From NCBI RefSeq assembly GCF_003334305.1, contig NZ_QOWS01000006.1: a stretch of DNA of 64,000 bases. One strand, written 5' to 3'. This document shows, in pieces, positions 22,169 through 33,010 of this stretch. A program made the translations under genes and the position numbers. The notes under the pieces were generated by a model. It saw only the letters and a program-made list of their open reading frames with translations. It did no database searches and was not told the origin of the DNA. Source of the DNA: Escherichia coli (GTDB lineage: Bacteria > Pseudomonadota > Gammaproteobacteria > Enterobacterales > Enterobacteriaceae). How positions within the stretch are numbered: position 1 is the first letter of the stretch; each line of letters opens with the position of its first letter.

Positions 22169-22174
22169 TTGAAT

Positions 22175-22195
22175 GCCTCGCCCGGTGGGCGAGGC
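22175..22195. terminator. convergent stem-loop between fhuB and hemL (GCCTCGCCC-GGTG-GGCGAGGC)
   Basis: Inverted repeat in the 34-bp spacer between the convergent fhuB and hemL stops. Confidence 0.45.
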
Positions 22196-22202
22196 AAAAT
22201 CA

Positions 22203-30950: not shown

Positions 30951-31063
30951 TACAATCTGTGAACTTCACCACAACTCCATACATCTTCATCATCCTTTAG
31001 GCATTTGCACAATGCCGTACGTTACGTACTTCCTTATGCTAAGCCGTGCATAACGGAGGACTT

Positions 31064-32221
31064 ATGGCTGGCTGGCATCTTGATACCAAAATGGCGCAGG
31101 ATATCGTGGCACGTACCATGCGCATCATCGATACCAATATCAACGTAATGGATGCCCGCGGGCGAATTATCGGCAGCGGCGATCGTGAGCGTATTGGTGA
31201 ATTGCACGAAGGTGCATTGCTGGTACTTTCACAGGGACGAGTCGTCGATATCGATGACGCGGTGGCACGCCATCTGCACGGTGTGCGGCAGGGGATTAAT
31301 CTACCGTTACGGCTGGAAGGTGAAATTGTCGGCGTAATTGGCCTGACAGGTGAACCAGAGAATCTGCGTAAATATGGCGAACTGGTCTGCATGACGGCTG
31401 AAATGATGCTGGAACAGTCGCGGTTGATGCACCTGTTGGCGCAGGATAGCCGTTTGCGGGAAGAACTGGTGATGAACCTGATTCAGGCTGAGGAGAATAC
31501 TCCCGCACTTACTGAATGGGCGCAACGGCTGGGGATCGATCTCAATCAACCGCGAGTAGTGGCTATTGTTGAGGTCGACAGCGGTCAGCTTGGCGTGGAC
31601 AGCGCAATGGCGGAGTTACAACAACTGCAAAATGCGCTGACTACGCCCGAGCGTAATAATCTGGTGGCGATTGTCTCGCTGACCGAAATGGTGGTGTTGA
31701 AACCGGCGTTGAACTCTTTTGGGCGCTGGGATGCAGAAGATCATCGTAAGCGAGTTGAACAACTGATTACCCGCATGAAAGAGTATGGCCAGCTGCGTTT
31801 TCGCGTTTCGCTGGGCAACTATTTTACCGGTCCTGGCAGTATTGCCCGATCCTATCGTACGGCGAAAACGACGATGGTGGTGGGTAAACAGCGGATGCCA
31901 GAAAGTCGCTGCTATTTTTATCAGGATCTGATGTTACCTGTGTTACTCGACAGTTTGCGTGGCGACTGGCAGGCCAATGAACTGGCGCGACCGCTGGCGC
32001 GGCTGAAAGCGATGGACAATAATGGCTTGCTGCGACGAACGCTGGCGGCGTGGTTTCGCCACAATGTGCAACCGCTGGCTACGTCAAAGGCGCTGTTTAT
32101 TCATCGTAATACTCTGGAGTATCGGCTTAATCGTATATCGGAACTGACCGGGCTTGATTTGGGTAATTTTGATGACAGGTTGCTGCTGTATGTGGCGTTG
32201 CAGCTGGATGAAGAGCGGTAG
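31064..32221 (+). CDS. cdaR: carbohydrate diacid regulator (CdaR/SdaR family)
   Basis: Track ORF over-extended; start MAGWHLDTKMAQDIV at 31064 with Shine-Dalgarno GGAGGA; 385 aa. Confidence 0.85.
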   Translation: MAGWHLDTKMAQDIVARTMRIIDTNINVMDARGRIIGSGDRERIGELHEGALLVLSQGRVVDIDDAVARHLHGVRQGINLPLRLEGEIVGVIGLTGEPENLRKYGELVCMTAEMMLEQSRLMHLLAQDSRLREELVMNLIQAEENTPALTEWAQRLGIDLNQPRVVAIVEVDSGQLGVDSAMAELQQLQNALTTPERNNLVAIVSLTEMVVLKPALNSFGRWDAEDHRKRVEQLITRMKEYGQLRFRVSLGNYFTGPGSIARSYRTAKTTMVVGKQRMPESRCYFYQDLMLPVLLDSLRGDWQANELARPLARLKAMDNNGLLRRTLAAWFRHNVQPLATSKALFIHRNTLEYRLNRISELTGLDLGNFDDRLLLYVALQLDEER

Positions 32222-32284: not shown

Positions 32285-32309
32285 GTCCGAGTTAACCGTC
32301 AGTTCGGCA

Positions 32310-32696
32310 TTATTTACGCGTTAGTTTTTCCAGATCGGCTTCAATCTCGCTGATCTTATTGGTTACGACTGACTCCAGGTGACGTAAGTCGTCGAGGATC
32401 TTACGCTTAAGATCAACTTCGCTGCGGTCACGCTGGCAGATTTGATCAAGCTCATCAATGATATACCGTAGATTCGGGCTGATTTCCTGGACTTCTTTAT
32501 AACCCTGACCCACACCATCAGCGACGACCGTTTTACGCTGACGCGGATATTTAAACTTAACGCTCTTGGCGAAAAACTCGCCTTTGTCTTTCTGGAAATA
32601 GATTTTCAGAATATCGTTGTTGGCTTCCTGCCGGAGGCTGTAACGATCAATTTCTTCAGGATTGGTAATACCCAGACTTTTCAGATTGTCGTACAT
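32310..32696 (-). CDS. yaeH: UPF0325 family protein
   Basis: 128-aa [26 protein letters not shown]... recognised as YaeH. Confidence 0.8.
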
Positions 32697-32977
32697 AGCG
32701 TTACCTCAAAATGAGTCAGTAAATTGTGCTTATTTTAGCATTTGGCCTGGCCCGCCCGGCTCGACTGTGATCGCAGAAAGCCTTTTTCTTCCAGACTTCT
32801 ATCATGGCGTAAAAATCAAAAAATTACCTGCTTTATTGTGGCGATATTCCATGGGATGGATTAACACATTTATCTTCGTTTTGCGAATTACATGACAGTC
32901 CGAAACAAGATGAAAAAGTATTTAAAAAAGGGGGGAAGAAGAATGAGTAGGACGAATTATTCTGAGCCAGAAAGCAT

Positions 32978-33000
32978 ACGGGCAGCATCATGCTGCCCGT
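32978..33000 (-). terminator. perfect palindrome ACGGGCAGCA-TCA-TGCTGCCCGT just downstream of the dapD stop
   Basis: 10-bp-arm palindrome 10 nt beyond the dapD stop codon. Confidence 0.5.
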
Positions 33001-33010
33001 ATATGTACTC

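Follow-up and report, generated by a model that had tools for sequence, protein, structure and literature searches.

Why does a stretch of Escherichia coli DNA that follows the K-12 gene order carry no yaeI between yaeH and dapD, the place where K-12 has it? The stretch in question is 64,000 nucleotides long (RefSeq assembly GCF_003334305.1, contig NZ_QOWS01000006.1) and is called the window throughout; its yaeH-dapD spacer measures 314 bp (32697-33010). The first-pass annotation of the window offered two explanations, a strain-specific deletion or an ancestral absence of the gene. As will be described below, the spacer very probably belongs to a variable Escherichia locus with several old alleles, of which it is the commonest, and is an old deletion scar of a cassette that carried yaeI together with a second gene, here termed orfX. 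The presence/absence polymorphism of yaeI is itself ordinary and already on record: Leimbach et al. 2017 (PMC5422975) reported yaeI as an accessory orthologous group that is enriched in phylogroup A. The history of the cassette, and an AT-rich core within the spacer that has no detectable source, are small additions to that record.

The short spacer as a majority allele

The spacer is anchored on the left by yaeH (32310-32696, minus strand), which appears in the open reading frame (ORF) list and encodes a DUF3461 protein of 128 aa, and on the right by dapD (33011-33835, minus strand; 274 aa). At the corresponding locus of K-12 MG1655 (b0163-b0166), the same genes flank the site in the same order and orientation, but yaeI (phosphodiesterase YaeI; 813 bp, 270 aa) sits between yaeH and dapD, and 1027 bp rather than 314 bp separate the yaeH start from the dapD stop. 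The first-pass annotation had correctly given this K-12 order, with a metallophosphoesterase gene of roughly 270 aa. Its description of the window also holds: the ORF list contains no yaeI, and a tblastn search with K-12 YaeI finds no match anywhere in the 64 kb. There is no other plausible gene in the spacer, where ORFs of 40-77 aa exist in a mechanical sense in the ORF list and none has any support. When the two loci are aligned by megablast, a window-specific stretch of 132 bp (32847-32978) replaces 845 bp of K-12 DNA made up of yaeI and its junctions, and about 130 bp of the window spacer are not found in K-12.

The frequency of the two forms was determined in 5426 complete E. coli genomes. 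The yaeH-spacer-dapD locus is present in 5425 of these by megablast. A segment specific to the short spacer (32840-32972) occurs in 3339 genomes, at a single place in each, and yaeI DNA occurs in 2084. These two counts add up to 5423 of 5426, which is the pattern expected of two alternative alleles at one locus. The short, yaeI-less spacer is the majority allele in E. coli (about 61.5%), and the K-12 form is the minority. Carriers of the short allele include O157:H7, O104:H4, Nissle 1917 and APEC O1, while yaeI is carried by K-12, BL21 and O111. The proposal of a strain-specific deletion therefore falls, as well-known reference strains share the spacer of the window. Because K-12 has the minority state at this locus, differences in gene content relative to K-12 should not be taken to mean deletion. 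The biological weight of the difference is small, in that yaeI is accessory and non-essential, and the window just has the commoner allele.

The short allele is not uniform. E. coli strain 120899 is 100% identical to the window over yaeH, spacer and dapD (32310-33835), and an O104:H4 genome is 100% identical over the short-specific segment. Other short-allele lineages of E. coli have the same architecture and are 93-98% identical to the window, from which they differ only in single-nucleotide polymorphisms (SNPs), in the length of a run of G residues and in the sequence variant of the hairpin next to dapD. Among themselves, short alleles differ by up to 7%. The short allele is also found in Escherichia sp. 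E1V33, with 93% identity to the window, in a genome whose flanking genes are about 90-94% identical to those of the window. The yaeI alleles of E. coli, for their part, range from 87 to 100% in nucleotide identity, a range far wider than that of the flanking genes. The occurrence of the short allele in a second species, together with this diversity of yaeI within E. coli, suggests that the alleles are old, and that they have either outlasted the separation of species or moved between them by recombination.

The yaeI-orfX cassette and its remnant

The origin of the short allele becomes clearer when the site is followed through the Enterobacteriaceae. A scan with YaeH, using one genome per bacterial species, gave 80 loci, which were typed by tblastn. 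In about 70 species (Citrobacter, Klebsiella, Enterobacter, Kluyvera, Cedecea and other genera), the gap between dapD and yaeH is only 109-125 bp and contains no yaeI. This primitive spacer of Citrobacter, Klebsiella, Enterobacter and others resembles that of the window in two respects: dapD and yaeH have no gene between them, and dapD is followed by a hairpin. However, it is about 110 bp long, ends dapD with a canonical AAAAAGCGGG...CCCGCTTTTTTT terminator, has its own conserved sequence upstream of yaeH, and shares no sequence similarity with the window spacer past the ribosome-binding site.

At the same site, yaeI is found in E. albertii, E. whittamii and a divergent genome labelled E. coli, in addition to K-12. 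The locus of Escherichia sp. MOD1-EC7003 contains yaeI, a metallophosphoesterase gene whose product bears a twin-arginine translocation (Tat) signal, plus a further ORF of 236 aa, which is the orfX introduced above. The orfX product is about 236-245 aa long and its function is not known. Homologues are scarce, forming 11 protein clusters out of 5.8 billion, and in every context retrieved orfX lies directly upstream of yaeH; the family is widespread, and consists of uncharacterised proteins with no solved structure. The complete order dapD-yaeI-orfX-yaeH is present in rare E. coli (one of the 5426 complete genomes, strain GF43, and also contig L096), in E. albertii (L102), in MOD1-EC7003 (L014) and in an assembly labelled Salmonella enterica (L091), whose flanks are 81-86% identical. 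The order dapD-orfX-yaeH, without yaeI, occurs on contig L099, for whose orfX product NCBI gives the name Enterobacter sp. kpr-6, and the order dapD-yaeI-yaeH in Superficieibacter electus, with a YaeI that is 65% identical. The locus is therefore a small multi-allelic hotspot, with four gene arrangements in addition to the primitive spacer, and could serve as a marker of lineage or recombination.

The short allele retains a piece of orfX. On the minus strand, 32816-32860 encode the last 14 codons and the stop of orfX in frame (SIPWNIATIKQVIF, then the stop), and an in-frame TAA at 32861-32863 closes this remnant upstream. The 14 residues align to PVPWGIARIKQVIF, also followed by the stop, of the intact orfX of MOD1-EC7003 (L014) and L091, with 10 of 14 identical, at a C-terminus that is nearly invariant over 13 homologues. 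By blastn, nucleotides 661-711 of orfX match 1255 complete E. coli genomes at 86-88%; the matches listed include O157:H7 strains, which are a short-form lineage, and none of the matches listed has an annotated feature. One might expect a deletion scar to preserve a piece of one of the cassette's genes, correctly placed and oriented, and this is the case for the orfX tail.

One might also expect such a scar to be bordered by cassette-type flanks instead of by the primitive spacer, and this is what is found. The cassette is accompanied by a hairpin after dapD and by about 120 bp upstream of yaeH, and neither of these has a match in the cassette-free genera. The hairpin of the window (32976-33002, minus strand) is of the cassette type and has perfect arms of 13 bp. 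The upstream region of yaeH (32697-32815, minus strand), which comprises its promoter and 5' leader, is homologous to the orfX-yaeH spacer of the cassette-bearing genera; it is common to all Escherichia alleles and unrelated to the sequence upstream of yaeH in other Enterobacteriaceae. When the comparison is extended to 32697-32838, the segment is 93.6-98% identical in other Escherichia species and 75-81% identical in L099 and L091, and it has no match in the spacers of Citrobacter, Klebsiella or Enterobacter. The full cassettes of E. coli (GF43, L096), E. albertii and MOD1-EC7003 have the hairpin type and the last 14 codons of orfX in common with the window, and their orfX-yaeH spacers are 93.6-100% identical to it over 141 bp. 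The window differs from them in lacking yaeI and about 94% of orfX, and in having instead an unrelated core of 109 bp.

The orfX tail also bears on the relationship between the short allele and that of K-12. The K-12 tail is shorter than that of the window, with only about 9 codons kept rather than 14, and the K-12 allele accordingly cannot be the parent of the short one. The idea that the window derives from it by a simple deletion was considered and is ruled out, both by the longer orfX tail of the window and by the roughly 130 bp that K-12 does not have. Judged from these sequences, the K-12 allele and the short allele are to be regarded as separate deletion derivatives of a cassette-bearing ancestor.

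A plausible order of events would be the following. The cassette, consisting of the hairpin, yaeI, orfX and a new yaeH upstream region, would have taken the place of the primitive dapD-yaeH spacer (about 110 bp) in some Enterobacteriaceae. It would then have decayed through different deletions: K-12-type strains would have lost orfX and kept yaeI, an Enterobacter-like lineage would have lost yaeI and kept orfX, and the allele of the window would have lost yaeI and all of orfX except its last 14 codons. What would be left in the window is the hairpin, the AT-rich core, the orfX tail and an intact yaeH promoter region. According to this scheme, the locus would presumably now do nothing beyond ending dapD transcription and driving yaeH. 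As for the source of the cassette, relatives of YaeI are found in Escherichia and a few enterobacteria (65-69% identity), and beyond these the nearest are proteins of Verrucomicrobiota and other environmental metagenome-assembled genomes, at 45-56%, which is consistent with horizontal acquisition.

The AT-rich core and the alternative readings

The part of the spacer that the cassette does not account for is the core (32861-32969), which is 109 bp long, specific to the short allele and rich in AT. The first-pass annotation had described the interval as AT-rich, and indeed the GC fraction is 0.41 in the spacer and about 0.34 in the core, compared to 0.517 in the whole window. Local alignment of the core on both strands against eight yaeI/orfX alleles, with shuffled controls, gave no significant similarity. 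The one long-gap chain that stood out, with L091 (z = 4.2), was rejected as an artefact, and with it the reading of the core as degraded yaeI/orfX: it links six blocks of 7-14 nt, the last of which falls on orfX sequence whose homology lies elsewhere in the spacer. A resemblance to an inverted orfX 5' end of L099, consisting of a Shine-Dalgarno (SD) sequence, an ATG and AATTATT, is not significant. The core is also not a repetitive extragenic palindromic (REP) element, a miniature inverted-repeat transposable element, an insertion sequence (IS) remnant or another mobile element, as it occurs at a single place per genome and has no informative plasmid or phage match. The matches in plasmid collections are only to Escherichia records of 0.4-4.9 Mb, far above ordinary plasmid size and all with the same sequence, and the phage matches are spurious. 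Rfam 15 has no family match in the core. Its sole match in the spacer, to sroE, scores 22.3 bits against a gathering threshold of 51 and lies on the hairpin, and a known small RNA (sRNA) was rejected on these grounds.

Two features of the core and its right border deserve description. The first is a tract consisting of a G-run and AAG (32930-32942, plus strand; GGGGGGAAGAAGA), which is variable in length: it is 3-5 nt shorter than in the window in five of seven alleles compared, and the O157 allele is equal in length with one substitution. The second is an ORF of 23 codons (32943-33014, plus strand) that follows the SD-like G-run and is convergent with dapD, such that the two stops overlap. 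The ATG and the reading frame are kept in all six good alleles, and the spacing from the SD-like sequence varies by up to 5 nt. Half of this ORF is the hairpin, and the substitutions in it are mostly non-synonymous or at hairpin positions. Because of the variable G-run, the overlap with the hairpin and the non-coding-like substitutions, this ORF is at best a candidate, and probably not a gene. The NCBI annotation records place no feature at the core or at the 23-codon ORF.

Several points weigh against the interpretation of the spacer as an old scar of the yaeI-orfX cassette. A plain scar would consist entirely of sequence derivable from the cassette, a yaeI remnant included, and the core is unmatched. 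As it is not derivable from any yaeI/orfX allele obtained, a plain deletion leaves part of the spacer unexplained, and either filler DNA or an unsampled variant of the cassette must be assumed. No direct repeats were found at the deletion junctions. The left half of the core shows more conservation than one would expect of a scar without function. The survey of the site is also limited, in that E. fergusonii, Shigella and typical Salmonella lay outside the sampling. Finally, the absence of yaeI elsewhere in the source genome would follow from the population counts; these contain no excess, so that yaeI could sit at another place in no more than a few of the genomes with the short allele.

How do the alternatives fare against the same data? 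That yaeI was lost recently, and in this strain alone, from an ancestor like K-12 has some appeal, since K-12 has yaeI at exactly this place and the 529 bp on the left of the locus are identical to K-12. It is nevertheless already refuted, and we give it practically no credence: the allele is common to 3339 of 5426 genomes and to a second Escherichia species, short alleles diverge from one another by up to 7%, and the spacer contains both orfX codons that are gone from the K-12 allele and the stretch of about 130 bp that K-12 lacks. A different possibility is that the 314-bp spacer represents the original empty state, and that the K-12 lineage later gained yaeI there by insertion, alone or together with orfX. 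The absence of yaeI between dapD and yaeH in most Enterobacteriaceae and the apparent horizontal acquisition of the gene, with its nearest outside relatives in Verrucomicrobiota, would both fit. However, the true primitive site has a spacer of its own, in which both the terminator and the region upstream of yaeH are different, and the short allele holds in-frame C-terminal orfX codons between cassette-type flanks. All sampled short alleles contain the 45 bp of orfX-like sequence and the 119 bp upstream of yaeH, and yaeI occupies the same site in E. albertii, E. whittamii and other Escherichia lineages. An empty site is therefore quite improbable. The first-pass suggestion of ancestral absence was right at the level of the family, where other genera have no yaeI here, but it does not describe the spacer of the window, which points to a secondary, ancient loss.

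The remaining alternative is that the short allele is a functional replacement, with the core under selection as a regulatory module of yaeH, as an sRNA or through the 23-codon ORF. One argument for this comes from E1V33. The left half of the core is identical to the window at 67 of 69 positions (97%), in a species whose genes differ by 6-10% (flanking genes 90-93% identical), and the identity profile between window and E1V33 has a peak at 32599-32898, like those seen at other 5' and promoter regions; these observations imply either some constraint or a short introgressed tract. The SD-like G-run, ATG and frame kept in six of six alleles, and the fact that the allele is both old and in the majority, can be added on the same side. 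Against this, the evidence for conservation comes from one species pair and 69 bp, and the core has no Rfam family, the sroE match being below threshold and on the hairpin. The scan found neither a promoter-like nor a terminator-like site in the core. The G-run and the ATG of the ORF vary in spacing by up to 5 nt, its substitutions are not of the coding type, half of it is hairpin, and no NCBI record annotates a feature there. A functional replacement is accordingly unlikely, and it is very doubtful that the 109-bp core is a selected element, be it a regulatory module upstream of yaeH, or a short transcript or a peptide of 23 aa that is convergent with dapD. If the core were indeed selected, most E. 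coli would differ from K-12 in the expression of dapD and yaeH, in a manner invisible to studies based on K-12.

Transcription signals and the rest of the window

The reading of the spacer as a cassette scar leaves it with two apparent tasks, and the sequences that would serve them can be compared with K-12. The first-pass annotation had noted a perfect palindrome beside the dapD stop, and its arms (32976-32988 and 32990-33002) are indeed 13 nt each, 100% complementary and separated by 1 nt. The RNA of the dapD strand has a predicted folding energy of -27.4 kcal/mol over the hairpin region (z = -4.4). The hairpin after dapD in K-12 is homologous, but only in K-12 is the stem followed by UUUUUUU: K-12 has CGGGCAGC...GCTGCCCG and then the seven U residues, whereas in the window the stem is followed by UAUGCUUUCU. 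Of the two marks of an intrinsic terminator, the window has a G+C-rich hairpin directly downstream of the stop codon and lacks a U-tract directly after the stem. The scan did not call the hairpin site terminator-like, and it gave no promoter or terminator site anywhere in the spacer. With the seven-U tract lost, some read-through from dapD toward yaeH may occur. The hairpin exists in two sequence variants, which are independent of the presence of yaeI.

On the yaeH side, Shimada et al. 2014 (PMC3946193) reported a constitutive sigma-70 promoter for yaeH in the yaeI-yaeH spacer of K-12. This promoter region is intact in the window, where TGCTAAAAT is a putative extended -10 motif of the yaeH promoter. 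Over 32697-32838 (142 bp), 141 positions are identical to K-12, and there are no SNPs at all relative to K-12 over 32309-32837 (529 bp), which cover yaeH and the yaeH-proximal part of the spacer. The YaeH protein of the window is 100% identical to that of K-12 (WP_000272188.1), and dapD has a nucleotide identity of 97.9%.

The yaeH 5' region is unusually conserved. In yaeH and the 141 bp upstream of it the window has no differences from K-12, compared to about 2% in cdaR and dapD. The segment 32599-32898 is 97-99% identical to that of a species (L008) whose genes are 90-93% identical to those of the window.

In the window, the gene order around the locus is cdaR (plus strand, 31046-32221), yaeH, the spacer, dapD and then glnD (minus strand, 33866-36538). 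The window is collinear with K-12 over 1-63896, and yaeI is the only gene-level difference in content, as the first-pass annotation had proposed; the rest of the megablast comparison shows variation in REP elements only. The last 104 bp (63897-64000), downstream of nlpE, are REP-like and have no megablast alignment to the K-12 nlpE-yaeF spacer. The sole other indel is a REP indel in the spacer between the convergent genes hemL and fhuB, where the window has a stretch of 31 bp with a simple hairpin (22171-22201; GCCTCGCCCGGTGGGCGAGGC) and K-12 has 154 bp of REP elements or bacterial interspersed mosaic elements (BIMEs).

Two kinds of unusual allele were encountered at the yaeH-dapD locus itself. 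The spacer of E. coli BS-04 has a gap of 28 bp and purine-rich insertions relative to all other short alleles, which looks like an assembly or homopolymer error. In addition, yaeI is itself a target of insertions: in E. coli EC0026B it is truncated by an integrase gene and a DUF3644 gene, and in E. coli strain 1506 it is split by IS1.
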